A stretch of DNA of 64,000 nt. Origin: Candidatus Bathyarchaeia archaeon (GTDB lineage Archaea; Thermoproteota; Bathyarchaeia; Bathyarchaeales; Bathycorpusculaceae). The position numbers and the translations under genes were made by a program. Shown here piece after piece: positions 21,814 to 41,988 of the stretch (the stretch's first letter is position 1; the number at the start of each line of letters is the position of its first letter). The notes under the pieces were generated by a model that saw only the letters and a program-made list of their open reading frames with translations, was not told where the DNA came from and searched no databases. The DNA is taken from positions 731 to 64,730 of the forward strand of contig JAVZOA010000001.1 of assembly GCA_038882535.1 (NCBI GenBank). Reading direction: 5' to 3'.

Positions 21814-22548
21814 ATGAGCACACATGCAGAAGAGTTGAAACTGCGCTTAATGACTATAGAGCTTCTTAGAACAGCCAAATATAAGCGGAACATCACGTAT
21901 CGCGAGTTGTCAGCGAAGACTGGCTTGCCAGTAACGGTTCTAAGCAGATACGCTAAAGGGCATGTTTTGCCTAACACCGCCAGAGCAAAGCAGCTCTGGA
22001 AGGTCTTGTCAAAGTTTGTTGGTTTGGAGAACGAACTTCGCAACAGGATAAGGTTTAATGAGGATGGTTATTTTGATAACACTGAGATCATTGGCGATTT
22101 CAACATCCTCCAGCAGGCGGCTAATCATGCCCTTGCAAATTTCGCTGGAAAACGCGTTACAAAAGTGTTTACGGCGGCTGTTGATGGGATTCCTTTGGCG
22201 ACTATGGTGGCAAACGCCCTAGGCGTAAACCTTGTTATAGCCAAAAGAAGCAAGGAGGTCGGCGTAAAAGAGTTCCTTGAGGAAACTTATGTGCTTAGGG
22301 ATTCCGGCGTGACTATGACGCTTTATGTTCCGAAAGACGCCATCAAAAAGCGAGACAGCGTTCTAATAGTTGATGACATGATTAAAACCGGCGAAACACA
22401 GGCAGCTCTCGTCAACCTAGTTCGTAAGGCGAAGGCTGAAATTTCAGGAGTTTTCTCCCTCATAGCCGTAGGTGATGAATGGCGAAAGCGATTGAAGCTT
22501 CCGGAAGAGTGCCCAATAGAAGTTGTAACTTACGTTAAGCCTCCATAG
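21814..22548 (+). CDS. HTH domain fused to a phosphoribosyltransferase (PyrE-like regulator type)
   Basis: N-terminal HTH (ITYRELSAKTGLPVTVLSRYAKG) and PRPP-binding loop VLIVDDMIKTGETQ. The ATG at 21814 is preceded by GGGGGAGGG. Confidence 0.7.
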   Translation: MSTHAEELKLRLMTIELLRTAKYKRNITYRELSAKTGLPVTVLSRYAKGHVLPNTARAKQLWKVLSKFVGLENELRNRIRFNEDGYFDNTEIIGDFNILQQAANHALANFAGKRVTKVFTAAVDGIPLATMVANALGVNLVIAKRSKEVGVKEFLEETYVLRDSGVTMTLYVPKDAIKKRDSVLIVDDMIKTGETQAALVNLVRKAKAEISGVFSLIAVGDEWRKRLKLPEECPIEVVTYVKPP

Positions 22549-23245
22549 CGTGGCATTTACAGTCCGCCTTAACCGGGCAAGCGATGCACTTTTCCTTTCT
22601 ACAATAGTTCTTGCCTAGGCGAAGCAGTGCAGTTTCAAAGTTTATGAAGGACATGCCGGAGACAGCGTTATCAGCCCAAAAATCTTCAAGTTGCCGCAAA
22701 ACATCCTTTGGAGATTTCTCATCAATTATTCCAAGGTTTTTAGCTGCCATTACAACGAGGCTTGTTGGTTTTGGTTTGACTTTTTCCCAAATGTCGCGCA
22801 GTTCCCTTAGGAATATGCCCACTGTTACGTCGCCGACGCCCTTCCCTAAACCTTTAAGCTTCTCTTCCAAATCTGCGTGGTCATGGGCTTCTTCGTAAAT
22901 GGTGGTTAGTTTTCCGCTATACTTTTCTATTAAGTTTCGCATAACTTCAAGAAGCTTATCAGCCGTTTTGAAGTCGTAACGTGTGTAGCTGCCTTCGTCG
23001 AGAATCTGCACTAAGCCGTCCCAGCCGGTTTCCAAAATCTTTTGGGGAGTTAAGACGCCGCGCTTTTCGAAGCACTTGTAGGTTTTTATGACGGAAGTTT
23101 CGGTTATGGGCGCGCCGAAAAGTATGGAGGTCAAAAACCATTTGAAAATTTCCTCTTCCTCTCGGCTTTTTAGGTCTATGCCTAAGATTTCGGAATAGCG
23201 CGTTCCAAGCTTTTCAACGAGGGTTTGGAGGCTTTCCCTCTTCAA
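22535..23245 (-). CDS. HhH-GPD superfamily DNA glycosylase with C-terminal Fe-S cluster loop
   Basis: Helix-hairpin-helix LKGLGKGVGDVTVGIFL and terminal Cys cluster CRKEKCIACPVKADCKC. Confidence 0.6.
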   Translation of the reverse strand: MKRESLQTLVEKLGTRYSEILGIDLKSREEEEIFKWFLTSILFGAPITETSVIKTYKCFEKRGVLTPQKILETGWDGLVQILDEGSYTRYDFKTADKLLEVMRNLIEKYSGKLTTIYEEAHDHADLEEKLKGLGKGVGDVTVGIFLRELRDIWEKVKPKPTSLVVMAAKNLGIIDEKSPKDVLRQLEDFWADNAVSGMSFINFETALLRLGKNYCRKEKCIACPVKADCKCHAMEA

Positions 23246-23335
23246 AACTTTTCACTATCCCCTCTCACATGTGTCTAACAAGATTTATACCCATACCGGC
23301 ATAAACGGTTAGCGGGCAAGGAGGGGGGATGCCGG

Positions 23336-24355
23336 ATGCGAACCATAATGTGGCGCAACGGAACAGTCATAACAATAGACCAGACGAAGCTCCCTCACAA
23401 AACAGAGTTTCTAAAGCTGAAAAATTGTAGTGAAGTGGCTGAAGCCATAAAAACCATGAAGATTAGGGGCGCTCCACTAATTGGGGTTGCCGCAGCCTAC
23501 GCCTTGGCGCTGACAGCTTACCAATCAAAGGCACGGCGGAAAGAAGAGCTTATCCATGGATTGGAGGAGGCGGCAAAAACATTACGGAAGACCAGACCGA
23601 CAGGGGTTAACCTCTTCTGGGCGGTTGACAGGATTTTAAACAAGGCTAGGGCTTTCCAAGGAAATGTTGAGGATTTAGTCGTCTTCGTCGTTGAAGAAGC
23701 GAATAGAATAGCTGACGAGGATGCCGCAGCAAACCGTTCGATGGGAAAGTATGGAGCCGCCCTAATCAATGATGGAGACACCGTACTGACGCACTGCAAC
23801 GCTGGAGCGCTAGCCACAGTTGACTATGGAACAGCCCTAGGCGTTATTAGGGCAGCCACTGAACAAGGCAGGAAAGTAAGGGTTATCGCCACCGAAACAA
23901 GACCAAAGCTGCAGGGCGCCCGCCTAACAACCTACGAGCTTAAACGGGACGGCATACCAGTCACCCTGATAAGCGACACCATGGTGGGATATGTCATGTA
24001 TAAGCGGATGGTGGATAAGGTTATTGTTGGAGCCGATAGAATAGTGCTGGACGCCATCATCAACAAAATTGGAACTTACCAGATAGCAGTTTTAGCCAAA
24101 GAACATGGCGTACCGTTTTATGTGGCGGCTCCAAAATCAACCTTTGACCTAGCCCACACAGCGGCAGACATAACAATAGAAGAGCGAAGCCCAGAAGAGG
24201 TGACATGTGTAGGCTCCGAGCGGATAGCCCCAGAAGGCGTGCCAGTCCTAAATCCAGCCTTTGACATTACGCCAATAAAATATGTGACAGCAATCATCTG
24301 CGAGGAAGGCATCCTATATAAGGATGATTTGGCAAAAATAAGCCAGCACGGTTAA
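23336..24355 (+). CDS. methylthioribose-1-phosphate isomerase / aIF-2B-family sugar-phosphate isomerase
   Basis: N-terminus VITIDQTKLPHKTEFLKL...AIKTMKIRGAPLIGVAAAYALAL and TRPKLQGARLT are typical of the MtnA/e2B2 family. Confidence 0.8.
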   Translation: MRTIMWRNGTVITIDQTKLPHKTEFLKLKNCSEVAEAIKTMKIRGAPLIGVAAAYALALTAYQSKARRKEELIHGLEEAAKTLRKTRPTGVNLFWAVDRILNKARAFQGNVEDLVVFVVEEANRIADEDAAANRSMGKYGAALINDGDTVLTHCNAGALATVDYGTALGVIRAATEQGRKVRVIATETRPKLQGARLTTYELKRDGIPVTLISDTMVGYVMYKRMVDKVIVGADRIVLDAIINKIGTYQIAVLAKEHGVPFYVAAPKSTFDLAHTAADITIEERSPEEVTCVGSERIAPEGVPVLNPAFDITPIKYVTAIICEEGILYKDDLAKISQHG

Positions 24356-24359
24356 GCCC

Positions 24360-24914
24360 ATGAGCGAAACCAAAGAGCAGATGCCTCGCCAAGAAACAAA
24401 AATCGAGGGAGCATTAACTGAAAAGGGAGTGAAAATAGCCAGCAAACAGAGAATAGAGGAGCTTAAAGCAAAAGGCTACGGCGTAGAAGAAAACGGCGGG
24501 CTTCTCCTAAACTTTTACGAGGCGCTCTACCTCCTAGATAAGAGCATAGTTTTAGTTAAAAACGAGAAAGGCGAGGAAATAGACTTCCAACAACTCTTGC
24601 AAGCCGCTGAAAAAACAGACGAGAACGCTTGGGCTAAGTACCTTGTTTACAGAGACCTAAGAAGCCGCGGATACGTTGTCCGCGAAGGCTTCGGCATGGG
24701 CGTAGACTTCAGGGTCTACGAAAGAGGCGAATATGGAAAGGACACAGCCAAATACCTAATCCTAAGCCTCCAAGAGGGCAAACCAATAACAATGAAGGAG
24801 CTAACCCAAATAATGAGACAGTGTCAAAGCCTAAAAAAGGAGCTTATTTTGGCTGTCATGAGCAGAAGAGGCGAAATAGTTTACTATTCCGTCTCACAAT
24901 TAACCCTACCATAA
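24360..24914 (+). CDS. endA: tRNA-splicing endonuclease
   Basis: YLVYRDLRSRGYVVREGFGMGVDFRVY catalytic-domain pattern; 184 aa as in homotetramer-type EndA. Confidence 0.8.
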   Translation: MSETKEQMPRQETKIEGALTEKGVKIASKQRIEELKAKGYGVEENGGLLLNFYEALYLLDKSIVLVKNEKGEEIDFQQLLQAAEKTDENAWAKYLVYRDLRSRGYVVREGFGMGVDFRVYERGEYGKDTAKYLILSLQEGKPITMKELTQIMRQCQSLKKELILAVMSRRGEIVYYSVSQLTLP

Positions 24915-24943
24915 AAGCGTAAACACATAAAACGTGAACAGCT

Positions 24944-26242
24944 ATGAGTGCCTACAAAACAGTCCGTGGAATGAGGGACTTCCTGCCAGAAGAAGCCAAA
25001 ATAATGCGTTTTATAGATGAAAAAGCCAGAAAAACAGCCAAACTATACGGATATAAGGAAATAATAACACCAGTTGTAGAGTCTTACGAGCTTGTGGCGG
25101 CAAAGGCAGGCGAAGAAGCCCGCGCCAGAATGTATGCCTTTGAAGATTTGGGTGGGCGGAAAGTCGCCCTAAGACCGGAATTCACGGCTTCTGTCGCAAG
25201 GCTTGTCGCAACAACGATGCGAAACGAACCCAAACCATTGAGGCTATTCTGCATTGGAAGCCTCTACAGATATGACGAACCACAAAAAGGGCGCTTTAGA
25301 GAGTTTTGGCAGTCAAACTTTGAGCTTATGGGCTCTGAAAAACCAGAAGCCGACGCCGAAGTACTACTACTAACAAACACTTTAATGAGGTCTGTTGGTC
25401 TGAAAAACTACACCTTCAAAGTTGGACACGTCGGCGTTTTAAGGGGCATTCTAAGCCGAGGAGGACTGGAAGAGGAAACACAAAACCGCGTCATGCAACT
25501 CATGGACAAAAAACAGTACGAGGAAGCGCTAGGAATCGTAAAGGAAGCCGGCGTATCAGAAAAGTGCCTGAAAACGCTTCAGAGAATGGTTGATTTAAGG
25601 GGGAGCAACGCTGCAAGCATTCTGGAAGAAATGGAAAAACTCGTGAAAGATTACAAAAGTGCTTCTGAAGCTGTGAAAAACCTTAAAGAAATCCTTGAAT
25701 TAGTCGAAGAATCAGAAAAAGGGCTGAACATAATTTTAGACGCTGGTTTCGCCCGCGGACTGGAATACTATACTGGAATGATTTTTGAGGTTTACGCTCC
25801 AAAGCTGGACATTGCACTGGCTGGCGGGGGAAGATATGACAAACTCGTGGAGCTTTTTGGAGGAGAGCCAACACCAGCCGTTGGGGTCGCTCATGGAATA
25901 GACAGAATAATGCTCGCCATGCAAGAACAGAAAACAAGTCTACCAGCCGAAGAGGAAAGGCGAGTTATGGTTATTCCAGTTAATGAAAACTTGAACAATG
26001 AAGCTTTGAGGATTTCAGAAATGCTTAGAAAAGAAGGGATAGCCGTTGAAACAGAAGTCATGAGGCGAAAAGTTACAAAGGCTTTGGAGGATGCAGATAG
26101 GAGGGGCATAAGCCACGTAGTAATAGTTGGCGAAAGAGAACTAAGCGAAGGAGCAGTCATCCTAAGAGACATGCAGAAAAAGGAACAAAGCAAGGTCAAA
26201 ATTGAGGAACTACCCAACAAAATAAAATCTAGGGAAGTTTAG
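24944..26242 (+). CDS. hisS: histidine--tRNA ligase
   Basis: Class II motifs (VRGMRDFLP, ALRPEFTASVAR, FCIGSLYRYDEPQKGRFREFWQ, GGGRYD) and a C-terminal anticodon-binding domain. Confidence 0.9.
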   Translation: MSAYKTVRGMRDFLPEEAKIMRFIDEKARKTAKLYGYKEIITPVVESYELVAAKAGEEARARMYAFEDLGGRKVALRPEFTASVARLVATTMRNEPKPLRLFCIGSLYRYDEPQKGRFREFWQSNFELMGSEKPEADAEVLLLTNTLMRSVGLKNYTFKVGHVGVLRGILSRGGLEEETQNRVMQLMDKKQYEEALGIVKEAGVSEKCLKTLQRMVDLRGSNAASILEEMEKLVKDYKSASEAVKNLKEILELVEESEKGLNIILDAGFARGLEYYTGMIFEVYAPKLDIALAGGGRYDKLVELFGGEPTPAVGVAHGIDRIMLAMQEQKTSLPAEEERRVMVIPVNENLNNEALRISEMLRKEGIAVETEVMRRKVTKALEDADRRGISHVVIVGERELSEGAVILRDMQKKEQSKVKIEELPNKIKSREV

Positions 26243-26246
26243 GTCT

Positions 26247-26729
26247 CTAAAATTCTGTGTTTCGCTCCCTTCTTAGGAAATCTCCAACATCCAAAATGTT
26301 TTTGACGACTACGCCACTTTTCGCCTTGTCTAAGTCCCTTTCTATTTTGCCAAAGCCGAGGCACTCACCATAACTATTAAAAACCAATGTGTAGGCGCCC
26401 TTGCTTCTAGAGCCATAAGCCTCCAATACCCCATCCTTAAATATGTCTCTGCCGCAGACGAAAAGCCAAGCCGCCCTATCATTAACAACCACCCTATTTT
26501 GGGCTTGGTCTGCAATCATAGAGAGCAGAAGAAAACTTGGAAAGAACTTGCCATTCTCAACTTTGCCAAGATAGGTGCCGGCAAAAAGCCAGTCTCCGCC
26601 TTTCTCAACTAACTTCTTCAAATTCGGGCTGAGCAAGAAAAATTTACCCTTCTTCTTAGCAACTAGGCTTTTGTCCAAGCTAAGCCTTGCACCAAACAGT
26701 TTAGCAAGATCCTCTATAGGCTTCGCCAT
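26247..26729 (-). CDS. Nip7-like PUA-domain protein
   Basis: C-terminal PUA-like GVVVKNILDVGDFLR. Lies immediately downstream of the NOP2/Sun methyltransferase. ATG at 26729 chosen; the longest ORF starts at 26771. Confidence 0.55.
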   Translation of the reverse strand: MAKPIEDLAKLFGARLSLDKSLVAKKKGKFFLLSPNLKKLVEKGGDWLFAGTYLGKVENGKFFPSFLLLSMIADQAQNRVVVNDRAAWLFVCGRDIFKDGVLEAYGSRSKGAYTLVFNSYGECLGFGKIERDLDKAKSGVVVKNILDVGDFLRRERNTEF

Positions 26730-26736
26730 AACCGTT

Positions 26737-27624
26737 TCACCTGTACTTGCGCTTTTTAAGTTTGCAGACAAAGAAGCCTTGAGTTTCGCCAGGCCATATA
26801 CGTCGGCAATTCCTTACAGAATCATCCAGCCTTCTGCCGAAAATTTCTGTTGGCGCTTCCTCTCCATAACATTCTACATCCACAGTTTCAAGACTGAGGC
26901 TCTTCACTGCCCAGTCAATGTTTAATTCGTCTTCTTCCGGCTCTAGGGAGCATGTGGCATAAACTATTTCACCGTCTTCTTTTAGAACCTTAGCAGCTTC
27001 TGCAAGAATTTCCCTTTGAAGCCTAGCGTTTCGCTTAACATCATCCAGTGTTCTCCGCCTAAACCAGTCCTTATCAGTAGCAAAGTTGCCAGAGCATGGA
27101 ACATCAAGCAGTATCCTATCAAACTTTAAACCTAACGTAGAAACTTTTCGCGCATCCAACCTATAGACAATGGTGTTTTTTACGCGGCACCGCTCCAGTT
27201 GATTCGCCAAGGCGTTAAGCCTCCGCTCATCAACATCTAAAGCCACAATAACACCAGTATTCTCCATTAAATCAGCCAACTGAACAGTTTTGCCGCCTGG
27301 AGCAGCACAAGCATCCAAGACAGTTTTACCCTTTAAATCTGTAAAAAGAGCAGCTGGAATTTGTGCGGCAGCCTCCTGAATGGAATAAAAGCCCAAAAGA
27401 TATTCTACCGTGGCGCCAACAGAAAACTCTGAACGCTTAATCCAGTAACCGCCACGCAGAAAGGGGATTTCCTCAAGCTCAACACCTAAACCCTTAAGCC
27501 TCTCCAAAATGTTGATGTCCTTAACATTCATGAAATTAACTCTAATGGCTTGTTTCAGCGTAACATTTCTAAACTCCCAGCCCAACAGCCGATAACGATT
27601 AACAAAAAATTCCTTACCAGACAT
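26737..27624 (-). CDS. NOL1/NOP2/Sun-family RNA cytosine-C5 methyltransferase
   Basis: SAM motif VLDACAAPGGKT and catalytic Cys motifs LLDVPCSG and YATCSLEPEEDE. ATG at 27624; the longer ORF to 27783 adds only a hydrophobic junk-like leader. Confidence 0.85.
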   Translation of the reverse strand: MSGKEFFVNRYRLLGWEFRNVTLKQAIRVNFMNVKDINILERLKGLGVELEEIPFLRGGYWIKRSEFSVGATVEYLLGFYSIQEAAAQIPAALFTDLKGKTVLDACAAPGGKTVQLADLMENTGVIVALDVDERRLNALANQLERCRVKNTIVYRLDARKVSTLGLKFDRILLDVPCSGNFATDKDWFRRRTLDDVKRNARLQREILAEAAKVLKEDGEIVYATCSLEPEEDELNIDWAVKSLSLETVDVECYGEEAPTEIFGRRLDDSVRNCRRIWPGETQGFFVCKLKKRKYR

Positions 27625-27831
27625 CAAAAACACAAATGTGAATAAGAGAATAAAAATTTGGTGATAAAAAGCAAAATTATAGAGGGGATGAGGTAGCGAA
27701 AATAACCGATAAAACCACACCATTTTCCATGTCTTACATAGCGCCGAAAACAAGCACGCATTGACATCCGCAAAATTGAACATAACGCTTTTTAGGAAAA
27801 TAACGATAAGAGGATAACCAGAAATTATTGA

Positions 27832-27909
27832 GCGGCCGTAGTCTAGCCTGGACTAGGACATCAGCCTGCCACGCTGACGACCCGGGTTCAAATCCCGGCG
27901 GCCGCACCA
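27832..27909 (+). tRNA. tRNA-Gly (anticodon GCC), CCA encoded
   Basis: Hand-folded cloverleaf: 7-bp acceptor GCGGCCG/CGGCCGC, D stem GTCT/GGAC, anticodon stem TCAGC/GCTGA with loop CTGCCAC, T arm CCGGG-TTCAAAT-CCCGG, discriminator A, then CCA. Confidence 0.9.
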
Positions 27910-27911
27910 CA
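27863..27911 (+). repeat. attL core (49-bp perfect direct repeat, 3' half of tRNA-Gly)
   Basis: agcctgccacgctgacgacccgggttcaaatcccggcggccgcaccaca is identical at 63647..63695. Confidence 0.9.
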
Positions 27912-28907
27912 AAACTTTCTCTTTTTGGGAAAAGAGAACCTTTACTAAGAGAAAATTGTGGGCTGCTTGGTTTTCAGGGTGTTTCTGCTGGAAGCGGTGT
28001 TAATTTGGCTCCGAGTTGGGGTTCTGCGGGTTGTGGGACGGTCCTGGGACGGTCCCAGCCGTTGGTTTGGGACGGCCCCGTTATTGATTATTGGGTTCTG
28101 CGGGATGGGTTTGTGGCTTTCCTTGAAAGCCGAAGGTTTAACGGGCGGTATGTTAAATGTATGCTGAGCTATTTGGATAAGTATGTTTCAGTGATTAGGG
28201 GTCCAATGGATGTTGTTAGGGTTTTCGCTGGTTTGACAGAGGGGCAGCAGCACAATTTGAGTAGGGGGCTTCGCAATCTCTTTAATTTCTTGGAGGCGCA
28301 GGGCTTTGATAAGGGGTATCTTGACGTTTTGCGAAGGAACATTCCGAAGGATAATTGTGGTTTTGATGTTCATATACCGTCTGAGGATGAAATCATAGCA
28401 AGTTTGAGGGTTATAGCTGATGGTTGTTTCAAGTATAGGGTTGTTTATGAGCTTATCCTTGACAGCGGCTTAAGGCTTGAGGAAGCTTGCAGGTTCATTA
28501 ACGCATTTAGCCGAGCTCAAGTTGAAGAGTTTGAAGGCTTTTGTGTTGCGCCCCTTGGATATTTTAGAAGGTCAAAATTTGCCTACTTCGCCTTCTTCAC
28601 GGACGAAACATTTAGGCTTCTCAAGCAGTTAAAGGAAAAAGTTGACCCCATAAGCGCTGTAACTTACCGGAGGAAAAAGCCTGGTCTTGTAGCCTTCAAG
28701 TATTTGCGGAAATTCGTCAATGACACCATGACAAGCGATGAACTCAACATACCAGAAAGCGTGGCAGACTTCATCCAAGGACGGACTCCAAAATCTATTG
28801 GCGCAAAACATTACATGAAGCTTAAGCGGAAAGCCATACAGTTCTACCCAAGATATGCAGAATACGTTTCAGGGTTAAGGCAAAAGGCTAAATTAATAAA
28901 AGCCTAA
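27863..28907 (+). CDS. SSV-type tyrosine integrase, C-terminal fragment Int(C)
   Basis: The ORF reads out of the att core without its own plausible start. The catalytic region has SGLRLEEA (Arg), FIQGR and GAKHY (Tyr). The att-encoded peptide [16 protein letters not shown] is shared in frame with the ORF at 63486. Confidence 0.8.
28019..28104 (+). repeat. nested short direct repeats inside the integrase linker region
   Basis: GGGTTCTGCGGG at 28019-28030 and 28093-28104 flanks three TGGGACGG(T/C)CC units at 28034, 28045 and 28068. Each unit contains GGACnGTCC. Confidence 0.7.
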
Positions 28908-28999: not shown

Positions 29000-29356
29000 G
29001 TGAGAGATCCAAATTTTAAGGTTAAGATTTCGAATGTTGAGGAGCCTGTTAAGTTTGTTTTTGTTGATCTACCTGTTGATGTTGGCTTTCCTGTTAGCGT
29101 AGTGCCTTCGCATAAGTTAATGGAGATTGGAGTTAAGCCCATCGACAAAATTAAACTTTCATTGGCTGATGGCAAGGAAGCCATCAGAGATATTGGTGTG
29201 GTGTTTTTTGAGTTGATGGGGCGGAGGACCGTCGGCCCTGTTGTGTTTGGTGAGGAGAAAGATAAAAGCGTTTTAGGTGTTACTGTTCTCAAAACTTTGG
29301 GGTTTATGTTTGACCCCCAAACGGGCAAGTTAAAGCCTAAGAGAATACGCTTTTAA
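29000..29356 (+). CDS. retropepsin-like (clan AA) small aspartic protease paralog, DVGF variant
   Basis: Aligns with the 46736..47200 product: PVDVGFPVSVVPSHKLMEIGV vs LVDTGASGCAIGKELAEKLGL, and SVLGVTVLKTLG vs PILGLDVMRVLG. Confidence 0.6.
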   Translation: MRDPNFKVKISNVEEPVKFVFVDLPVDVGFPVSVVPSHKLMEIGVKPIDKIKLSLADGKEAIRDIGVVFFELMGRRTVGPVVFGEEKDKSVLGVTVLKTLGFMFDPQTGKLKPKRIRF

Positions 29357-30179: not shown

Positions 30180-31658
30180 TTATTTCTTCCAGAAAAGATA
30201 AACCTTAGTCTGTGATAGGAGGCCGCAAATTTTAATTAAGTGTGCAAGCCTTGAAAGGCTTGCTTTTTTAACTTCTTTATTGTAGGTTTGCTTTTTTCCG
30301 AATGGCATGTGACAAAAGAAGTATTTCATAAACCGTGCGTGGCTATACTTAATGAAGGCTTCTCTAACCGTTTGAATTTCTTTTTCGTTTAGGCTTTGAA
30401 GCCTGTTTAAAATGTATCTTTCGCTCCCAAGCAGGTGAATGTTGAAGCCCAGTTTCCGTAAAACCTCTGCAATTTTTAGAGCTTGTTTTGGCGGAGGCTG
30501 CTCAACTATTTTTTGCATTCCTGCTTTTTCTGCGAAGGGATTGTATTTTGCCATGACTGCTGGCATTTCCACGTAAGGCGTTCCCACTAAATGTAGTGTT
30601 TCTCTGACAAGTTTTGCCCCTAAACCAATAGTGCGATATTTCGGGTGCACAACAACACGGCTGATTATGCTCAGTTTTTCGTTAAGCTCTTTCATGCTCA
30701 TTTTTGGCAGGACAAGTCTTCTTCCGAAGCATGTCGGCGGCGGGTGGGCATACACGATCACTCCACAAAGCTCGTCGCCTCTTTTTAGACTGAAGATTTT
30801 TCGTGGACCAGCTATTTTGTGACTTCTATAATGGAATTCAGCGAGCTTATGCCAATCTTGAACCGTGCCTTCCTTTATGCGCATCTCTTTGACGAGGCTG
30901 CACTCTTTTGCTGGTTGGTTGGGGTAATAGTTTACGGTTATTTCTTTTCCGAACAGTTTATGGATGTGGACGCTTGGGTTTAAGTCTTCAAAAAGGTCTG
31001 TGTGGGTTGTCGCAGCTAAAACTGCTTTGCCCTGCTGCCTTGCCAGTTTCTGAAGGTTGTAGGCGACTATTTTTGCCGTGTCCCTGTCGAGTGTAGCTGC
31101 GAACTCGTCCATTATCCAGAATTGCGCTTGGCTTTCAATCATTTTGGCTATTTTGTAGCGGTATTTCTGGCCGTCTGAAAGTTGCTCGTAAGTGCGTAGG
31201 AATAGGAAAGCGTCGTTTAAACCGACTCGGCTTAAAAGCTCCAAAGCCTCTTCAAGGCTTTTACCAAGGGTTTCCACGAGAGGCTTGTCGCGGATTATTT
31301 GCTTTTCGACTTCAGCGATGTTTATGCAGGTCCAGTTGGTGTCCCGCCTTATGTCCTCTTCTAATGCCTTTAAAAGGACGCTTTTTCCGCTGCCTGAATC
31401 GCCTGTTATGTAAACGATGTCCGTCGGCCCAATTTTTAACTCAATGTTGTCGTAAATGACAAATTTCTGCCATTTGTCAAGGCCTAAACCGAAAGCTTCA
31501 GCTACTCCAACCACGCGGTCAGTAGGCTCTGGGGCTGCCGTTTCGTAGGCTATGTTGATGATAAACTTGCCTGACTTAACGTCGAATCTGCGTATGTGCT
31601 GCTTGATGACGAAATGTTCAGGCTTGGAAGTTGGCGGCTGCAAGGCTGTCTCCCACAT
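30180..31658 (-). CDS. ABC-type ATPase fused to a GNAT acetyltransferase domain
   Basis: Walker A GDSGSGKS, signature LSDGQ, Walker B FWIMDEF, H-loop TTHTD, then GNAT motif A ISRVVVHPKYRTIGLGAKLV. ATG at 31658 chosen; the longest ORF starts at 31724. Confidence 0.75.
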   Translation of the reverse strand: MWETALQPPTSKPEHFVIKQHIRRFDVKSGKFIINIAYETAAPEPTDRVVGVAEAFGLGLDKWQKFVIYDNIELKIGPTDIVYITGDSGSGKSVLLKALEEDIRRDTNWTCINIAEVEKQIIRDKPLVETLGKSLEEALELLSRVGLNDAFLFLRTYEQLSDGQKYRYKIAKMIESQAQFWIMDEFAATLDRDTAKIVAYNLQKLARQQGKAVLAATTHTDLFEDLNPSVHIHKLFGKEITVNYYPNQPAKECSLVKEMRIKEGTVQDWHKLAEFHYRSHKIAGPRKIFSLKRGDELCGVIVYAHPPPTCFGRRLVLPKMSMKELNEKLSIISRVVVHPKYRTIGLGAKLVRETLHLVGTPYVEMPAVMAKYNPFAEKAGMQKIVEQPPPKQALKIAEVLRKLGFNIHLLGSERYILNRLQSLNEKEIQTVREAFIKYSHARFMKYFFCHMPFGKKQTYNKEVKKASLSRLAHLIKICGLLSQTKVYLFWKK

Positions 31659-32739
31659 TATATTGTTGGGCTGAAGGCGGGGTTGGAGGCGTGAAAGTGA
31701 CTTGTAAAGCCAAAGCGTCAACATAGGCTGTTTCTTTGGATTTTACCGCTGGAACTGGCAGCTCATCCATAAACTGAGCCATAGAATAGCCGTGCTTCTT
31801 TAGGAATACAAAATCGCTTGGGTGAAACTCTTCAAGGCTTAGGAGGGCGTCTGCCCTCTCTAATATGACGTTGTAGGCTTTCGCTTTTCTTATGTGAAGC
31901 TCGGCTCTTTGTATGGGGACATTGACTATTTTATCGCTTAATCGTGTGAGTTTGCATGGTAGCCAAACCCTGTTGCCGTTTCGCAACTGCTCCCAAATCT
32001 GCTTTGACGTCATCTGGGTGTATTCGCTCTCTTTTAGCCCTTCAATCCAGACCCGGTGGGGATGCTCTGCTGTAAACGTGAAATGGGCTTGGTAAGCGAA
32101 CATTTCATTAGTTGCTTTGCTGCGCTTGTAGTGTGGTAGAATGTGAAGCGTTACCCACTCCTCGCCTTCGCTGCACCTAACCTCTTTAACTCTTGCAAAG
32201 CCGAAAATGCCTTCTTCAGCCAAGTAGGCGTGAAGTAAGTCGCCAGCTTTGACCTCTTTTACGTTAACGAACTCTTTTTGGTTGTCTTCCGTGAGCCTTA
32301 TGAAGTAGGTGTTTTCGGAATAGCATCCACCCGTAGCCGATTCTTTCATTTTTATTCTGCAATCCGCGTTGTTGAGCTTGTTCAAGTCCCAGCTCGATTC
32401 GTAGCTTGTTATGTCATACCAGTCCCAAGTTAGGGATGTCCTGTTTGGGCATTGAAGTTCGTGTGCTGCTCCTCCAGAGTCAATATATCTCAAAACTGTG
32501 TAATGATTGTAGCCAGACGGGTTCACTTCATAATGCTTTACACCGACCTTGACAGCCGTTATGACGCTGCCCGGCGGGATGTCGTTTTCAGTGAAGCCCC
32601 ACCCGCCATATTTCACTTCAGAACCGTCTATGCTTGAAGACGTGTAAACGCCATCTTCGGTGTAAGCGTTTTCAGGGCTAACCCATCCTGACACGATTAC
32701 TTGATTTGTGGACGGATTTTTAGTCACCACTTGACTCAT
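31618..32739 (-). CDS. putative tail fibre/receptor-binding protein containing a Hint-like module
   Basis: Last large gene of the tail module. The N-terminus looks like a beta-sandwich. The internal CYSENTYFIRL...VKAGDLL...FTFTAEHPHRVW resembles intein/Hint blocks A and B. The ATG at 32739 overlaps the upstream stop (TAATG). Confidence 0.5.
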   Translation of the reverse strand: MSQVVTKNPSTNQVIVSGWVSPENAYTEDGVYTSSSIDGSEVKYGGWGFTENDIPPGSVITAVKVGVKHYEVNPSGYNHYTVLRYIDSGGAAHELQCPNRTSLTWDWYDITSYESSWDLNKLNNADCRIKMKESATGGCYSENTYFIRLTEDNQKEFVNVKEVKAGDLLHAYLAEEGIFGFARVKEVRCSEGEEWVTLHILPHYKRSKATNEMFAYQAHFTFTAEHPHRVWIEGLKESEYTQMTSKQIWEQLRNGNRVWLPCKLTRLSDKIVNVPIQRAELHIRKAKAYNVILERADALLSLEEFHPSDFVFLKKHGYSMAQFMDELPVPAVKSKETAYVDALALQVTFTPPTPPSAQQYNVGDSLAAANFQA

Positions 32740-33209
32740 TAAGCCTGCACAGCCCCTATACAATAATCAACTGTTCCAGCAGCATCCAAATACAGCACAA
32801 GCGAGTCTCCAGCATTAGACTGCCAAGGTCTCACAAAGCTCTTAACCACGCCAGTTTTAGGCGCGAGCTTTCCTTTGAAAATGTTTTTTCCAGAAGTGCC
32901 AAAATGGAGGCGAACTCCAACATCGGCTGAACCGCTGTTCCATAGGCTTATGTCGTAAACGCGTACGACTTTCTCAGAAACAGGCGAGATTATTGTTGTG
33001 CTGCCTGCAGCCGTCGGCGAGTATGTCCCACTAACCTGATGAGCATCTAAAATGCGGTCCTCAGGCGTTAATTGAAGCTGCCCTTCCAGCATAGCGACTT
33101 TAAGGTTTCCCGCCGACGTGAGTGAGACTGGAAGCTGTTCTGAAACTATTTTGACGGTTTCGTCTTCTTTTGTTTTTACTGGAAGTGTAGTTACAACCTC
33201 TGCTGACAT
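32739..33209 (-). CDS. putative tail tip/baseplate-associated protein
   Basis: 156-aa ORF between the hub-like and fibre-like genes, beta-rich. The call rests on position only. Confidence 0.4.
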   Translation of the reverse strand: MSAEVVTTLPVKTKEDETVKIVSEQLPVSLTSAGNLKVAMLEGQLQLTPEDRILDAHQVSGTYSPTAAGSTTIISPVSEKVVRVYDISLWNSGSADVGVRLHFGTSGKNIFKGKLAPKTGVVKSFVRPWQSNAGDSLVLYLDAAGTVDYCIGAVQA

Positions 33210-33213
33210 TTTA

Positions 33214-34893
33214 TCATGCTCTTTTTAGGGTTGAAACTGCGCCTCTTCCGAGTTTGGTTCTGGAAAGTTTTTCAACGGTTACCGTTGTGCTGCGTAAACC
33301 ATAAAGATAGTCAGCCAATAATGGCGGAGCCTTGCCAAGTTCTAATACAACTTCCAAGGTTTGATTTTTCCCATCAACAACATATTCAACGCTTTCAATG
33401 CGGAAATAACCTGAAACACCCTCGTTAGGCAGTGAAACATAGATTTTGTCCCCCGGAAGTACAGGTGTGTTGCCATAGTCAAGAACTGTGGTTCGCACCA
33501 CAATGTAGTCTGCTGGGTCTTTTAGGTGGTTCAGTAAAGCCCTTGCCCTTAAAAGGCATTCATAGTCGCTGTAGAGTTCCTCGTCTGTTTCGGTTAGCTC
33601 TCTCAAACCATAGAGGTTTTGGCTGTTGGTGTCTTCAACGGTGGCGGAGTATCTGCAGTTTTCAAAGAGTATGTGGTCAACATACATCATTGCGTATTCG
33701 CCGAGTCCGCCTGACTCTGGAAACTGCATGTAGAGGCCTATACGGTTAATGTTGTTCCAGTCCGGGCTGCCGTAAGGCGCCCAATACTCTTCAAGGCTTA
33801 ACTCAATCTTTTTCCAAGTGTTCGGCGAGTCAACAAGGTCGTAAAGCAGTTCCCGATAATAATAGTTGTTTGCGTCTTTGTGAAGCCGCACTTGAATGGT
33901 TGAAGGGTTTACTCCGCTTCTGAAAGGTTGCCATTTAATCCAGAACCGCAGCTTCTTGAAGCCGTCAGGCTCTCTGGCTTTAATTGTGCTTGGCAAAATT
34001 CGGTAAAAGCCAATTCTGTCTTTGGTTGTGGAGTTATAAACCCAGTTAACCCTAATGGAATTGCTGTCTGTGTAAATTTTCTCCCCGTCCTTGGAAACAT
34101 GATCTGGTATGTCGACAACATCATGGTCGTCATAATACGGATACCAATTGTCACGGGTCTCTGTTAAGCCATCTTCGTTATCATCTGAGGGTAGCTTCTT
34201 TTCCAAAGAGCCTAAAACTTTGATTTTGTTGCGAATCCTGAAAATGTCCCTTTGATATTCACTGGCTTCAATTCTGTCTGTAAGGCTTACGGGTGATGTT
34301 TTACTGTTTTTGGGGAAAAATTCAAACTTGCCGTCTGGAGCCACTCTGAAGTCGAAGCCTACAACGCCGTTTTTGTCAGCGGACTCCGCAATATACTTGA
34401 TAATGTCCCAAACAGGCGTGTTCTCATATTCCAGCCACGTATAAGTTGTATCCGTGTTTTCAACAAGTTCTGTGGAATCCCTAACGTGGCTTAATCCTAC
34501 ATAATAATCCAAGAGGTATTTAACGATGGCTTCACCTTTCATGTTTTCAAAGGCACCAGTGAATACTCGGCGGAAAAGGCGTTCTCCCCAGCATCTGCCG
34601 CTGACCAGTGTGTAATGTTCGTTTGGCGTGGATTCATGTTTAATGGATTCAATGCGACAAGTTATTATCTGCGGAACATTAGAGCCTCTGCCAATAAAAA
34701 TGGAGCCGTCCATTCCAACAGCAAGCGGAACAGAACCGTTTGGGCTGTATTTACCGTCCCAATTCTGAAGTAGCAGTTCAAAACTGCTAACCTCTTTTGT
34801 GCAGCCTAAATGCACACGGCACTCGATTACATCGCTTTGCGGAATCCCATAACCGCCGAAGGCTAAAGCCATTTTTGGAGTTTCAACACTCAC
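33214..34893 (-). CDS. putative tail hub / distal tail protein
   Basis: 559 aa, directly downstream of the tape-measure-like gene with a 4-nt overlap. The N-terminus (VIECRVHLGCTKEVSSFELLLQNWDGKYS) resembles gpD/gp27-type hub N-domains. Confidence 0.5.
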   Translation of the reverse strand: MSVETPKMALAFGGYGIPQSDVIECRVHLGCTKEVSSFELLLQNWDGKYSPNGSVPLAVGMDGSIFIGRGSNVPQIITCRIESIKHESTPNEHYTLVSGRCWGERLFRRVFTGAFENMKGEAIVKYLLDYYVGLSHVRDSTELVENTDTTYTWLEYENTPVWDIIKYIAESADKNGVVGFDFRVAPDGKFEFFPKNSKTSPVSLTDRIEASEYQRDIFRIRNKIKVLGSLEKKLPSDDNEDGLTETRDNWYPYYDDHDVVDIPDHVSKDGEKIYTDSNSIRVNWVYNSTTKDRIGFYRILPSTIKAREPDGFKKLRFWIKWQPFRSGVNPSTIQVRLHKDANNYYYRELLYDLVDSPNTWKKIELSLEEYWAPYGSPDWNNINRIGLYMQFPESGGLGEYAMMYVDHILFENCRYSATVEDTNSQNLYGLRELTETDEELYSDYECLLRARALLNHLKDPADYIVVRTTVLDYGNTPVLPGDKIYVSLPNEGVSGYFRIESVEYVVDGKNQTLEVVLELGKAPPLLADYLYGLRSTTVTVEKLSRTKLGRGAVSTLKRA

Positions 34894-35591
34894 GGCTCAA
34901 CACCACGCCTATACATTTCTTCGCCAGCCCGCACAACAGTTCTAACATGCACTGTTCTTCCAGCCATCTCGCTGACAGCTGCATTATATTCCTTGACAGA
35001 TTCCGTGGCGGTGTTCATTTGACTGGCAAACATAGCCATCGCAGCAGCGGCAGCCATAATAACGCCTATACCAACACCCGTCAAAGCCAGAAAAGTGGCG
35101 TGGCTAATGTTTAGGGCGTTTTGAGCGTGAACTGCAAGCCATGTGGCGGCAGCCTTAACCTTATGGGCTGCGGCTACGAGAAGGCTGCTTGAGGCGTTAG
35201 CTGTCTGCATCGTCGTGTTTGTAGCTACGGCTGCCGTGTGTGTCGATGTCAAAACTGTTATGTAATGTTGAACCCTTACGAAAATGCCGAGCAATGTTAT
35301 AACATGCGTTATTGTGCGCATCCACTTGGCGCTTTCACGGTCAATAAGCCCAAAATCAGCAGCTAAAGTAATTAAATGTGAGCCTAACATTCCAATGCTG
35401 CTTATTCCACGGGCAACCGTTAACAGGCTAATGTTACAAGATTCCGCGTGAGCCTTCATCTCGTCAAAGGCTGTTGCAGAGGCTCGGACTTGGCTTCCCA
35501 TGCGTGCAGCGTCGCTGCTAACAGCCTCAAATGTTGGAGTAGCCTCGTTCACGGCTCTTATGGTTACGGCTATTTCGCCGACGCTGCTCAA
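34890..35591 (-). CDS. putative tape measure protein (short, 233 aa)
   Basis: Ala/Thr/Ser-rich helical protein with hydrophobic segments. Sits between the chaperone/gp10-like genes and the hub gene. Confidence 0.5.
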   Translation of the reverse strand: MSSVGEIAVTIRAVNEATPTFEAVSSDAARMGSQVRASATAFDEMKAHAESCNISLLTVARGISSIGMLGSHLITLAADFGLIDRESAKWMRTITHVITLLGIFVRVQHYITVLTSTHTAAVATNTTMQTANASSSLLVAAAHKVKAAATWLAVHAQNALNISHATFLALTGVGIGVIMAAAAAMAMFASQMNTATESVKEYNAAVSEMAGRTVHVRTVVRAGEEMYRRGVEP

Positions 35592-35956
35592 ATTCCAGAA
35601 ACCTCACTTAATGCGTATTGCAAGTTTAAACCCACAGCAGCCAAAAACTGTGATGTGGCTTCTTGAAGGGCTCGTGTCAAAAAGTAGCGTGGTTGAATAT
35701 AGCGGGTTCCAAACTCTTGATAAAGGGCGTAGGGAACGTAACAGCCAACTTTAAAATTGTATTCGTCTACCATTTGCACGTTGATGCTTTGCATAAGCCT
35801 TCCAGTTTTAACAGGCGCCAGTTGTCTCGCACGAGCTTGCACCATTTGAGCTGTCTGTTGTAAGCCTTGCTGAACCCACTTGCTAACTGATCCTGGAAGC
35901 CTCTCCATCCTCCGCCTAAAATCTGCATCTTCAACGGTAACTTCAAACTCTATCAT
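35588..35956 (-). CDS. HK97 gp10-family tail component
   Basis: LAPVKTGRLMQSI ... VPYALYQEFGTRYIQPRYFL matches the gp10-family pattern (PV.TG.L..SI ... YA..vEfGT). Confidence 0.6.
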   Translation of the reverse strand: MIEFEVTVEDADFRRRMERLPGSVSKWVQQGLQQTAQMVQARARQLAPVKTGRLMQSINVQMVDEYNFKVGCYVPYALYQEFGTRYIQPRYFLTRALQEATSQFLAAVGLNLQYALSEVSGI

Positions 35957-36488
35957 CGAAGTTTCACTTCACGTTTAGCTTTCTCCATTTCTTCCATCGT
36001 CTGCCTGTCAATTTCTTCCAAAATAATGAGGAGCTGTTCAATCGCTTTGGCTGGCTGTCTGTCGATCTGGTTTATTGTCCACCCGAACTCTTTTGCAAGC
36101 CTGTAAACCGTGAGGGCAGGATGCGGCTTTCCCCTTCTGATGGCTCGGATAAAAAAGCTGCTTCTTCACGGCTAACGGTGCAAAGCTCGTTGGCAACGCG
36201 GCTGAACAGCTCACCAAGCCCAATTGGAATGCCGTTTTCAGGGTCTTCACTTAACAGCTTATCCAAGGTTATGGGTTTGTTGGGCGGCTGCTCTTTAAGA
36301 GAAGCCCATATTGTTTCTGCTTGAATTGCTGTGTAATCGCTTGCAACCACCTGTCCGGTTATGGGATGGTATTTTGTATATTTTTGGATTATGCGTGTTC
36401 TTTTAGCCCATGTAATCTCTTGGAAGACATATCTGCCTTTGTATTCCTCGCCGTATTCGTCTCCAACATCAACTATTTTCGTTTTCAT
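35953..36488 (-). CDS. tail assembly chaperone, predicted -1 frameshift product (gpGT-like, about 178 aa)
   Basis: The -1 frame is open for 65 codons from the heptamer at 36150-36156 to a TGA at 35953-35955, which overlaps the ATG of the next gene (ATGA). Confidence 0.55.
36072..36488 (-). CDS. tail assembly chaperone, zero-frame product (gpG-like)
   Basis: 138-aa ORF immediately after the tail tube gene. It contains a slippery heptamer 26 codons before its stop. Confidence 0.6.
   Translation of the reverse strand: MKTKIVDVGDEYGEEYKGRYVFQEITWAKRTRIIQKYTKYHPITGQVVASDYTAIQAETIWASLKEQPPNKPITLDKLLSEDPENGIPIGLGELFSRVANELCTVSREEAAFLSEPSEGESRILPSRFTGLQKSSGGQ
36150..36156 (-). other. -1 programmed ribosomal frameshift slippery site U UUU UUA
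   Basis: The minus strand reads GCT TTT TTA in the zero frame (X XXY YYZ = T TTT TTA), inside the overlap of the two chaperone frames. Confidence 0.6.
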
Positions 36489-37348
36489 TACGCTATCACC
36501 ACGTCTCTTGCCACGAATTTGGCTTTGCAGCTTACAATGTCCTCAATTTTCGCTTGAGTTTTCACCCCGTCCCATTTACAGTATTTGAATAGGACGTATC
36601 CGCCGCCCATGACAAATTTTAGGCTGAACTCTGAATCAGCTAACACTTCGTCAAACTCTGTTTTATCCTCAAACTCAAAGTTTACCTCGCCTTCAAGCTC
36701 TCTGTGGCGGGCAACAAGATATTTCAACAAATAGGGCGTTGTGGCTCTCTGAACAGGAACAGCCTTCAAATTATTTTCTATGGAAAACTTCCAGTCTAAA
36801 ACTCGCTCAACAGTTGCTAAGCCGCTGCCGTCAGCAGCTCCTTTCTGAACATAACAGTCTATGGATGTAAGCCCACCTGCATAATCCATGTATGAACCTG
36901 TTTTAGCTGTGCCTGTCGCCAAGTTTTGTCCAATCAATTCGACGGTTGCTTTTACGACCTCTTCAAGGCTGCATTCCACGCTTAACTTGTTGATTCGCAT
37001 ACCGCTATACGTTAAAGTTAAGACATCTGTTGGCGAACTGAAAAGTCCCTTATAATAGACTGTTTGAAGGCTTAAGCTGTTCAATGTATAGGCGTGCTGA
37101 ATAAAGGCTACTGGAGCATCAGCTGGCAAAACATGCCCCAATTTTACCGTTGGATCGCGCACGCCAAGTTTCAAAGCTGCCAAATCTCTGCTTCCAACAG
37201 TCCGCACCTTAATAAGGTTAGGGCTTAACGCTGGCTCAACGCTTTCCGCTGGAATCCCAATCCAAGAAGGGTTGGCTGGCGTCTGACCATAGGTGGATTC
37301 TTGGACGAAATAGACGCGGCATTCATGTGCTCCATATGTTTCAGGCAT
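36488..37348 (-). CDS. putative major tail (tube) protein
   Basis: 286-aa beta-rich protein directly upstream of the chaperone/frameshift pair, which is the canonical position of the tail tube gene. Confidence 0.55.
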   Translation of the reverse strand: MPETYGAHECRVYFVQESTYGQTPANPSWIGIPAESVEPALSPNLIKVRTVGSRDLAALKLGVRDPTVKLGHVLPADAPVAFIQHAYTLNSLSLQTVYYKGLFSSPTDVLTLTYSGMRINKLSVECSLEEVVKATVELIGQNLATGTAKTGSYMDYAGGLTSIDCYVQKGAADGSGLATVERVLDWKFSIENNLKAVPVQRATTPYLLKYLVARHRELEGEVNFEFEDKTEFDEVLADSEFSLKFVMGGGYVLFKYCKWDGVKTQAKIEDIVSCKAKFVARDVVIA

Positions 37349-37365
37349 TTTTCATCCTTACCTTT

Positions 37366-39749: not shown

Positions 39750-39819
39750 CTTCCAGTTCCAGCGACTTTTCTGCGTGCAACCTTTCTTCTAACGCGGTTA
39801 AGCCTGCTTTCTCCCATGC

Positions 39820-40308
39820 TCATGGGTTAATTATCCCACCTCGATAAGTTGGAACTTCATCTTTCGTTGATGCTTCTGCAGCCACAACAGGCTTTGCAAA
39901 ATTAGCCATAGCCCTTAACAAGTCGTTACGTAATCCTTCAACAGTCTTTTCAAAGGCTAAACGCCCAATGCTTGCCCTTGTAACGTACAAGTCTCCCAGC
40001 CTATAATCGAAAGCCCCTGTTAACATTCCACCGCTGGCAGCCACCAGGACACGGAGACAAGCCAAATTAACAGCCACAAGCTTCGCCCAGCCATAACGCG
40101 GGTCACTTTCGTCTAAATCCATGCCTACAATGGCGTTAGCGTAAATGTTCGCATAATCTACATGAGCCTGAAAGCTGGCTTCGGCGACTGGCAAACCGTA
40201 AACCGTGTAAACATGGTTTGCACTATCGTAAGACGCGTTTAAAGCAGCAACAACATCTGAAATTGACACATATTGTATAGTCAAATCTAACCAACCTAAC
40301 TTCAGCAA
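39820..40308 (-). CDS. putative head-tail connector (gp6-like)
   Basis: 162-aa helical protein between the capsid and adaptor genes. The call rests on position. Confidence 0.4.
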   Translation of the reverse strand: MLKLGWLDLTIQYVSISDVVAALNASYDSANHVYTVYGLPVAEASFQAHVDYANIYANAIVGMDLDESDPRYGWAKLVAVNLACLRVLVAASGGMLTGAFDYRLGDLYVTRASIGRLAFEKTVEGLRNDLLRAMANFAKPVVAAEASTKDEVPTYRGGIINP

Positions 40309-40330
40309 AATCTATGTAGGACGCTGGGCT

Positions 40331-40624: not shown

Positions 40625-40668
40625 TGGAACAGAAAAACGACGGAAAATGGGTAAAGGCTATTATCCGT

Positions 40669-41562: not shown

Positions 41563-41576
41563 ACGGTTTCACCTCT

Positions 41577-41969: not shown

Positions 41970-41988
41970 AAAAAAGTTAGTCCTCCTT

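Follow-up and report, generated by a model that had tools for sequence, protein, structure and literature searches.

How does a tailed virus, which must leave the chromosome to make progeny, get out again when its own integration has cut its integrase gene in two? This question is raised by a 64-kb stretch of DNA from Candidatus Bathyarchaeia archaeon (GCA_038882535.1, contig JAVZOA010000001.1, positions 731–64,730; the whole stretch is called the window here, and positions are counted from its first letter), a member of the Bathyarchaeia, a lineage that is very abundant in sediments and hot springs. The segment 27912–63646, together with one 49-bp core, is with high probability a temperate head-tailed (Caudoviricetes-type) provirus, integrated in a transfer RNA gene, tRNA-Gly(GCC), by a tyrosine integrase of the Sulfolobus spindle-shaped virus (SSV) type, also known as 'type I' or 'suicidal'. 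Such self-splitting integrases have been described in spindle-shaped, globular, droplet-shaped, and pleomorphic archaeal viruses, in plasmids, and in a cryptic thaumarchaeal element; most of their hosts are (hyper)thermophiles, and many of the carriers persist as episomes able to supply intact integrase.

The split is visible in the reading frames at the two ends of the element. An open reading frame (ORF) at 27828–28907 runs through the 3′ half of tRNA-Gly, and an ORF at 63486–63704 reads the distant copy of the core, attR, in the same frame, which confirms the claim of a first-pass annotation, made from the sequence alone, that both ORFs translate the 49-bp core identically. Likewise, the uninterrupted gene of about 401 codons, free of stops and frame changes, that this annotation expected upon excision is recovered when 63486–63695 is joined to 27912–28907 (1206 nt, 401 codons, no stop). 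The long part, Int(C), follows tRNA-Gly directly and shares its orientation, and the short N-terminal part, Int(N), stands at attR. The true start of the joined gene is likely the second ATG, at 63513 (MPKPG...; M10 of 401), because every homologue starts there and a GGTGG Shine-Dalgarno-like box lies upstream, and the protein would then have 392 residues. In Int(C), the first ATG is codon 154, within the conserved domain, and from the att core up to this domain just two start codons are in frame, TTG 28005, with GGTG 6 nt to its 5′ side, and TTG 28062. The earlier statement that the ORF leaving attL has no credible start of its own thus stands as far as ATG is concerned, but a start at one of the two TTG codons is possible.

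The insertion, 35.8 kb in length, lies between two copies of the core, which spans from the anticodon loop to 2 nt beyond the CCA end (tRNA positions 32–78 plus 2 nt); the 5′ part of the tRNA-Gly gene is host DNA, and its 3′ part, from 27863, is the att core. The empty site is preserved in a related Bathyarchaeia metagenome-assembled genome (MAG; GCA_038880555.1, L166), a contig of which lacks the 35.8 kb, is 87% identical in nucleotides to 21941–27909 and 87% to 63647–64000, and has the RsmB/F methyltransferase gene, tRNA-Gly(GCC), and the tautomerase gene directly adjoining; the attB site rebuilt in silico is colinear with it over the junction (202/231). The same tRNA-Gly occurs at the same locus in L166 and in two further genomes, L002 and L079, and the synteny of the flanks with Bathyarchaeia MAGs places the host in this class. 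In L002, the site holds a close relative whose Int(C) is 93% identical in nucleotides, against just 73% for the host flank. In L079 (GCA_038870895.1, JAVZJH010000085.1), only a 4.6-kb remnant is left at this tRNA-Gly site, in which Int(N) (98% identical), attR, and the genes for the AsnC, GYD, and CS domains are retained and from which Int(C) and all structural genes have been lost. Recognizing the split gives the exact borders of the provirus. No third att copy, even with 3 mismatches allowed, and no second integrase were found in the 64-kb window, and a tandem or nested integration was rejected on these grounds.

The tautomerase-proximal side of the same locus holds other, unrelated mobile elements in JGI metagenome contigs from close host relatives (L162, L164, and L165), among them an Eco57I-like restriction-modification gene accompanied by a primase, and a 315-residue PF00589/PF16795 integrase accompanied by a serine recombinase. 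Since different elements occupy the locus in these contigs, the tRNA-Gly site is an integration hot spot.

The rebuilt protein matches the Pfam family PF16795, 'Archaeal phage integrase' (2.6e-27, 96 bits, cut-off 27, residues 225–387), and no other Pfam family. It also matches PHROG 5127 (phrog_5127), integrase, and, in sequence comparison, the SSV1 Int catalytic-domain structures 3uxu, 3vcf, and 4dks at about 1e-17. The catalytic residues, in the numbering of the 401-residue protein, are R258, K333, R336, and Y371 (codon 28812–28814), and the motifs SGLR, KYLR, and GAKHY align to SSV1 R211, K278/R281, and Y314. The R..KxxR..Y residues are invariant in 13 homologues; this tetrad, with Lys replacing the usual His, is the signature of SSV-type integrases (PMC5861418). 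Although the motifs SGLRLEEA, FIQGR, and GAKHY, which had been taken to mark the catalytic region, are all present, the alignment with SSV1 Int places the second catalytic Arg in KYLRKF and not in FIQGR.

In the AlphaFold (AF2) model built on this alignment, residues 119–392 are well folded, with a predicted local distance difference test (pLDDT) score of about 90, residues 10–39 form two helices (pLDDT 53–67), and residues 40–113 are disordered; the predicted disordered stretch is the part encoded by the att core and by the DNA beyond it. In a Foldseek search, the SSV1 catalytic domain provides the top four matches (template modelling score, TM, 0.83–0.88), followed by XerA and lambda Int 75–356 over the core-binding and catalytic domains (lambda against residues 119–392). 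The PF16795 match, the SSV1 Int structures, and the Foldseek scores together support the assignment to the SSV type made in the first-pass annotation. In pNOB8/XerA-type (type II) archaeal integrases, att lies outside the gene, int remains intact after integration, and PF00589 and a Y/HxxR motif are found, whereas here the gene is split, PF16795 is the only family reported, and XerA structures are more distant fold matches. The best integrase match among GTDB species representatives is 65% identical. The ratio of nonsynonymous to synonymous substitution rates (dN/dS) of Int(C) against L002 is 0.15 over the folded domains; Int(C) is under purifying selection, which fits a gene that works between integration episodes. 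When both parts, Int(C) and Int(N), are compared with copies from other hosts, values of 0.15–0.27 are obtained.

Relatives in which the gene is still whole are known from metagenomes. One contig without a full tRNA (L001) carries a 369-residue ORF, P0051, that contains the 3′ half of a tRNA-Leu-like sequence; its residue 1 (MPKPGFTAITV...) aligns with residue 10 of the rebuilt protein, and the alignment runs through to the C-terminus. Another, L100, encodes an intact 432-residue integrase with an embedded tRNA 3′ half, again without a full tRNA. Bathyarchaeia assemblies also contain dozens of Int(N) and Int(C) halves that stand apart from each other. A profile scan found 130 relatives of Int(N) in JGI metagenomes; among 82 loci examined, namely the best 80 of these 130 and two from IMG/VR, 62 are short ORFs that end in a tRNA-derived peptide, 18 run off contig ends, and one is the intact integrase of L100. 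The remaining locus, L161, holds a 359-residue ORF that was considered as a second intact integrase and rejected, since Int(N) there runs by chance into a host methyltransferase gene. When Int(N) alone served as the query, stand-alone homologues were also found in other Bathyarchaeia MAGs (P0121–P0124, ORFs of 60–69 residues, 77–98% identical), of which one, 98% identical, has the same tRNA-Gly read-through and others, 77% identical, are fused to a tRNA-Glu-derived peptide and followed by host genes. One and the same Int(N) type is paired with tRNA-Gly, Glu, Arg, and Pro cores.

On the other side of the split, the Int(C) ORFs at 68 loci of GTDB genomes and in six IMG/VR contigs remain open on the upstream side where they cross tRNA-derived sequence, and they do so in each of the three frames and in either orientation (GSNPGG, VQIP, GFKSRP, and, in reverse, GFEPGSSAW); the same frame behaviour was described for pT26-2-type integrases by Badel et al. 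(PMC7253208). Both halves can be seen together in one MAG, which holds an Int(N), P0122, and an Int(C), L017, the latter adjoining an intact tRNA-Glu read in the same frame, and in a 29.6-kb IMG/VR contig (L005, L081), where Int(C) at one end is separated by tail and terminase genes from Int(N) with tRNA-Pro at the opposite end.

Int(N) itself is probably a ribbon-helix-helix (RHH) domain, on evidence that is marginal and tentative. The best PDB matches of its profile are the RHH proteins AvtR (0.029) and Arc (0.036), the homologue P0039 carries a CcdA match, and RHH_1 is found at E = 0.055, below the cut-off; the hhalign comparison with an RHH regulator encoded within the element gave an 11-column match of 12% probability, which counts against the assignment.

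The DNA between attL and attR holds a Caudoviricetes-type set of genes (the terminase TerL, portal, HK97-fold capsid, and tail genes), which confirms the tailed-virus backbone proposed earlier, and all the hallmark structural ORFs are full length (Table 1). Moreover, in at least 22 other contigs, integrase halves are linked, within a few kb, to homologues of TerL (about 50–55% identity), the tube (54–62%), or the baseplate (57–83%). Because this head-tail linkage recurs across contigs, the integrase belongs to the tailed virus, as a lineage and not as an accident. PHROGs returned almost no matches for ten unassigned structural or cargo ORFs.

Table 1. Features of the provirus, its integration site, and the host flanks (positions in the window).
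Feature	Position	Strand	Basis or remark
RsmB/F-type methyltransferase gene, host left flank	26737–27783	-	Synteny with L002, L079, and L166, where PF01189 is called
tRNA-Gly(GCC), intact	27832–27909	+	ARAGORN; sole tRNA found in the window
attL core, left copy of the 49-bp exact direct repeat	27863–27911	+	0 matches expected by chance
Int(C): linker, then core-binding and catalytic domains of SSV-type tyrosine integrase	27912–28907	+	Stop codon 28905–28907
Inverted repeat AAACTTTCTCTTTT / AAAAGAGAACCTTT with T5 tract	27912–27943	+	Adjoins tRNA 3′ end; lies in the int frame
Two copies of GGGTTCTGCGGG(T/A)TG	28019–28033 and 28093–28107	+	Flank the triple repeat on both sides
Triple repeat TGGGACGGYCCY	28034–28079	+	Copies at 28034, 28045, and 28068; start-to-start spacing 11 and 23 nt
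Retropepsin-like aspartyl protease	29000–29356	+	No Pfam match
Head-tail morphogenesis block	30180–47200	-	Pfam, PHROGs; cargo at low-coordinate end
ABC-ATPase/GNAT fusion	30180–31724	-	Cargo end of the block
YQBQ baseplate-like	33214–34893	-	Pfam
Tape-measure-like (weak)	34890–35591	-	PHROGs adds weak tail and tape-measure matches
gp10-like (HK97-gp10_like)	35588–35956	-	Pfam
Tail tube (Phage_tube_2)	36488–37348	-	Pfam
HK97-like capsid (Phage_capsid_4)	40669–41562	-	Pfam
Cement protein (Phage_cement_2)	41577–41969	-	Pfam
Portal (Phage_portal, Portal_Mu)	43693–45036	-	Pfam
TerL (Terminase_6N, Terminase_6C)	45040–46428	-	Pfam; 27% identical to annotated phage terminases
Retropepsin-like aspartyl protease	46736–47200	-	Pfam
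1518-residue protein	47951–52507	-	Between morphogenesis and regulatory blocks
Divergent RHH regulator pair	54833–55024 and 55137–55562	- and +	RHH_1 at 6e-06 and 5e-07
Low-GC island	56000–62000		GC 0.34–0.36 against about 0.45
Type II methyltransferase	57027–59039	+	PADLOC MTase_II, 6e-32
423-residue ORF without assignment	59044–60315	-	Between methyltransferase and endonuclease
Type II restriction endonuclease	60420–61085	+	PADLOC REase_II, 1e-22
Cellular-type cargo just inside attR	61600–63400		
AsnC-type ligand-binding domain	62081–62323		Cargo
GYD domain	62434–62736		Cargo
CS/Hsp20-like	63131–63364		Cargo
Int(N): N-terminal, probably RHH, domain	63513–63646	+	Own start codon kept; as integrated, ORF continues through attR to stop 63702–63704
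attR core, right repeat copy	63647–63695	+	Displaced partial tRNA 3′ half; no complete tRNA here (ARAGORN)
4-oxalocrotonate tautomerase gene, host right flank	63738–63944	+	P0125 and P0126, 92–95% identical, carry PF01361
Predicted attP junction			…TTTAAATCA / 49-bp core / AAACTTTCTC…
Predicted attB junction			…GGACATC / core / GACTTTTAAC…

Several observations weigh against an integrase that is split by integration and can be restored by excision. The in-frame codons TTG 28005 and TTG 28062 could start a protein made from Int(C) only, and the NCBI pipeline calls such a protein for P0001, which is 95% identical. No replication gene was identified in the element. The trapped element of L079 is decaying, which shows that proviruses of this kind can be trapped and decay. 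In addition, the excised attP junction of this virus had 0 matches in IMG/VR and 0 in JGI metagenome contigs, a weak negative from an exact-pattern scan (6 nt of the Int(N) side, the core, and 4 nt of the Int(C) side, exact match required), so that any activity of this copy is putative. It is thus to be asked whether Int(C) could be self-sufficient, expressed from one of the TTG codons under the tRNA promoter or an internal one, the attR ORF being a separate small RHH regulator and the shared frame being tolerated rather than required. The proteins of about 300 residues that gene callers predict for most homologues would agree with this, as would the GGTG 6 nt upstream of TTG 28005, an in-frame ATG that is conserved right after the third DNA repeat in a second, coiled-coil integrase subfamily, the weak in vitro activity of SSV Int(C), and the genetic evidence of TKV4 Int(C) expression (PMC8371274). 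Yet in the intact relatives a single ORF unites N-domain, att core, and catalytic part, the strongly conserved N-domain is always the 5′ end of an ORF running into att, no ATG precedes the conserved domain in this element, and a matching frame with about 73 stop-free codons, estimated here to arise by chance at roughly 0.5% per locus, recurs in dozens of loci; a self-sufficient Int(C) is, accordingly, very improbable.

It is more improbable still, to the point of being hardly credible, that the region is a composite, in which a small SSV-type integrative element lies beside, or is nested with, an unrelated tailed provirus and the integrase is not that of the tailed virus. Occupation of the tRNA-Gly hot spot by different elements elsewhere (L162, L164, and L165) and the mosaicism shown by the low-GC island at 56–62 kb would be in keeping with a composite, but only two att copies and no other integrase are present in the 64 kb, homologous TerL, tube, or baseplate genes are found at most a few kb from the integrase halves in the independent contigs counted above (at least 22), and in the 29.6-kb viral contig Int(C) and Int(N) stand at opposite ends and enclose the tail and terminase genes. 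A different matter is whether the provirus is a dead, trapped remnant, the continuous frame of which merely reflects a recent integration. This concerns its present-day activity and is compatible with the identification given here; the decay of L079 at the same site, the failure to find the attP junction in the scans of IMG/VR and JGI metagenome contigs, and the lack of recognized replication genes in the element lend it some weight, while the identity of the att copies over 49 bp, the full length of all hallmark structural ORFs, and the dN/dS of 0.15–0.27 for the two integrase parts relative to copies from other hosts speak against it, and on balance a dead element seems unlikely, though the chance of it is not small.

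The preferred account, a tailed provirus with an SSV-type integrase split by its own integration, implies the following course of events. In the free circular genome, int would be one ORF of about 392 codons, encoding a short N-terminal domain (probably RHH), a disordered linker of about 75 residues, a core-binding domain, and a catalytic domain, and a triple repeat as well as attP, which duplicates the 3′ half of the tRNA, would lie in the linker DNA. The virus would be inserted by recombination of attP with its identical counterpart in the host tRNA gene, and an intact tRNA would be regenerated at attL; Int(C) would be left beside the tRNA without a start codon, and Int(N), with the promoter and the start codon, would come to lie 35.8 kb away at attR. 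Precise excision would rebuild the int gene. By analogy with SSV2, pTN3, and TKV4, excision would most likely need an intact integrase in trans, from a co-resident or superinfecting relative, or a weak activity of Int(C), expressed from the tRNA promoter and a TTG start, or homologous recombination across the 49-bp repeat. The need for residual or trans-supplied integrase that the first-pass annotation stated likewise draws on other systems. Trans-complementation is plausible because single MAGs can hold several related integrase halves. By itself, SSV Int(C) shows weak activity in vitro at best, the N-terminus mediating multimerisation; TKV4 and SSV2 excise when they are provided with an intact integrase of a related kind; for pTN3, the tRNA promoter may drive transcription of Int(C); and there is genetic evidence for the expression of TKV4 Int(C) (PMC8371274). 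In the present element, the inverted repeat with its T5 tract may act as a tRNA terminator that limits read-through into Int(C).

The DNA beside the core has a further conserved feature. The triple repeat sits in the linker-coding part of Int(C), 126–160 nt beyond the tRNA 3′ end, its middle copy is palindromic, and the motif TGGGACGGYCCY has no occurrence elsewhere in the 64 kb. With identical 11/23-nt spacing, the triple repeat follows the tRNA 3′ end in L002, and the same repeat and spacing are found in ten loci of the coiled-coil subfamily, which targets tRNA-Glu or tRNA-Arg, at an offset of about 62 nt versus 126 nt here; in that subfamily, the conserved in-frame ATG comes directly after the third repeat copy. 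Position and spacing are conserved across subfamilies and orientations (L002, L014–L033, L081, and L100). In L081, int is antisense to the tRNA and the motif, here placed between Int(N) and the core, is again found right behind the tRNA 3′ end; because it stays on the tRNA-3′ side despite the reversed int, the motif tracks the att site and not the protein. The linker peptide encoded over the repeat is predicted to be disordered, and, compared with the folded domains, synonymous divergence in the linker is lower by a factor of about four (small counts). At the corresponding place, L001, with its divergent N-domain, carries a 20-bp palindrome of different sequence, GTACTAGTA x2.

These patterns suggest that the repeat copies are candidate arm-type or operator sites recognized by the integrase's own N-domain. 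A bolder version, which is to be regarded as doubtful, would make the Bathyarchaeia enzymes heterobivalent SSV-type integrases, in which the RHH-like N-domain would bind the triple repeat GGGACNGYCC as arm-type or operator sites, and the split-off Int(N) would still bind beside Int(C) and aid or control Int(C) expression or excision. In every case the GGGACNGYCC triple repeat lies to the tRNA-3′ side of the core, irrespective of the direction in which int is read. The different palindrome of L001, which has a divergent N-domain, is a hint in favour of this version. If this were true, a lytic tailed virus would gain a built-in exit from 'suicidal' integration. Under the arm-site reading only, the putative arrangement here resembles that of the heterobivalent lambda Int, with a small N-terminal DNA-binding domain, a flexible linker, core-binding and catalytic domains, and repeats at a fixed distance from the core; however, the N-domains have no sequence relationship, and attP of lambda lies outside int.

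Among known systems, the integrases of SSV1 and SSV2 (Fuselloviridae, Sulfolobales), the founding 'type I' enzymes, share with the present one PF16795, the catalytic fold, and the R..KxxR..Y tetrad, as well as an attP that lies in the ORF near the N-terminus and equals the tRNA 3′ half, so that integration yields an Int(N) of about 65–70 residues and a long Int(C). They differ in that identity is only about 30% and confined to the catalytic domain, and in that their carrier is a 15-kb spindle virus which is also episomal, whereas here a 35.8-kb head-tailed provirus, a Bathyarchaeia host, and a probably RHH N-domain are found. The triple repeat beside the core is conserved here, whereas no such repeats are described for SSV integrases in a review (PMC8371274). 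The 'suicidal' pT26-2/pTN3 integrases, carried by plasmids of Thermococcales, Methanococcales, and Archaeoglobales and by the TKV4-type virus-like element, likewise have a partitioned gene and tRNA targets, their att core is translated in different frames among related integrases, and there is modular shuffling of Int(N), att, and Int(C) (PMC7253208), as seen here; in pTN3, too, Int(C) lies downstream of a tRNA promoter. They belong, however, to another clade and another host phylum, and their carriers are plasmids or tailless icosahedral virus-like elements, no head-tail carrier having been reported.

Published tailed proviruses of Bathyarchaeia include BATPV1, BATPV2, DSLF01000001_pro, and others (PMC11705971), and Kunpengvirus (PMC10848311). 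They resemble the present element in host class, size (about 38 kb), GC (0.45–0.48), position beside tRNA genes, and tail modules with an adjacent ABC-ATPase or GNAT gene, but their integrases are annotated as XerC/XerA-type (Phage_integrase, DNA_BRE_C) and are intact on integration. The one exception is a published 10-kb Bathyarchaeia 'head-tailed provirus', for which a Phage_integr_3 integrase is given in a supplementary table, the partition not being remarked on. The reported carriers of partitioned integrases are fuselloviruses and other crenarchaeal elements, pT26-2/pTN3 plasmids or virus-like elements, and one cryptic thaumarchaeal element (PMC8371274, PMC7253208, and PMC6563490). When the rebuilt integrase was compared by tblastn with 50,697 GenBank virus records, 69 were matched (Sulfolobus 57, Thermococcus 3, Aeropyrum 2, Sulfolobales 2, Betaguttavirus 2, Betafusellovirus 2, and Archaeoglobus pleomorphic provirus 1), none of them tailed by organism name, which bears out the remark of the first-pass annotation that the SSV type is classically associated with fuselloviruses and Thermococcales plasmids and not with head-tail viruses. 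A literature search that left subscription-only papers outside its scope found no paper joining SSV-type or suicidal integrases with Caudoviricetes.

Other parts of the provirus also deserve mention. The divergent RHH pair is a probable lysogeny switch, judging from its arrangement, and homologues of the pair (76–78% identity) lie on the L100 contig that carries the intact integrase. The low-GC island contains a type II restriction-modification pair, with the unassigned 423-residue ORF between its two genes. The ABC-type ATPase/GNAT acetyltransferase fusion is 78–83% identical in related proviruses, far above TerL (about 52%), usually adjoins the integrase halves, and gives weak PADLOC matches to mad3 and mad8. 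The 1518-residue protein combines NosD/beta-helix repeats and PKD/Ig domains with a signal-like segment at the N-terminus and a hydrophobic anchor at the C-terminus, and could be a receptor-binding or depolymerase protein or a surface cargo. The two retropepsin-like aspartyl-protease ORFs both match the same region of L010. The cellular-type cargo just inside attR is kept in L079.

The pairing of a self-splitting integrase with a head-tailed virus is not a one-off but recurs in many Bathyarchaeia contigs. It is a known integration strategy and not a new mechanism; what is new is the type of carrier (the virus realm) and the host class. In practical terms, gene callers and provirus finders mis-annotate such loci, yielding truncated proteins of about 300 residues with artificial starts and orphan 'hypothetical proteins' of 60–70 residues, whereas once the split is recognized, both ends of a provirus can be paired even if they lie on different MAG contigs. 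For the biology of these viruses, a self-splitting module that serves a widespread group of head-tailed Bathyarchaeia viruses sharpens the question of how excision takes place.

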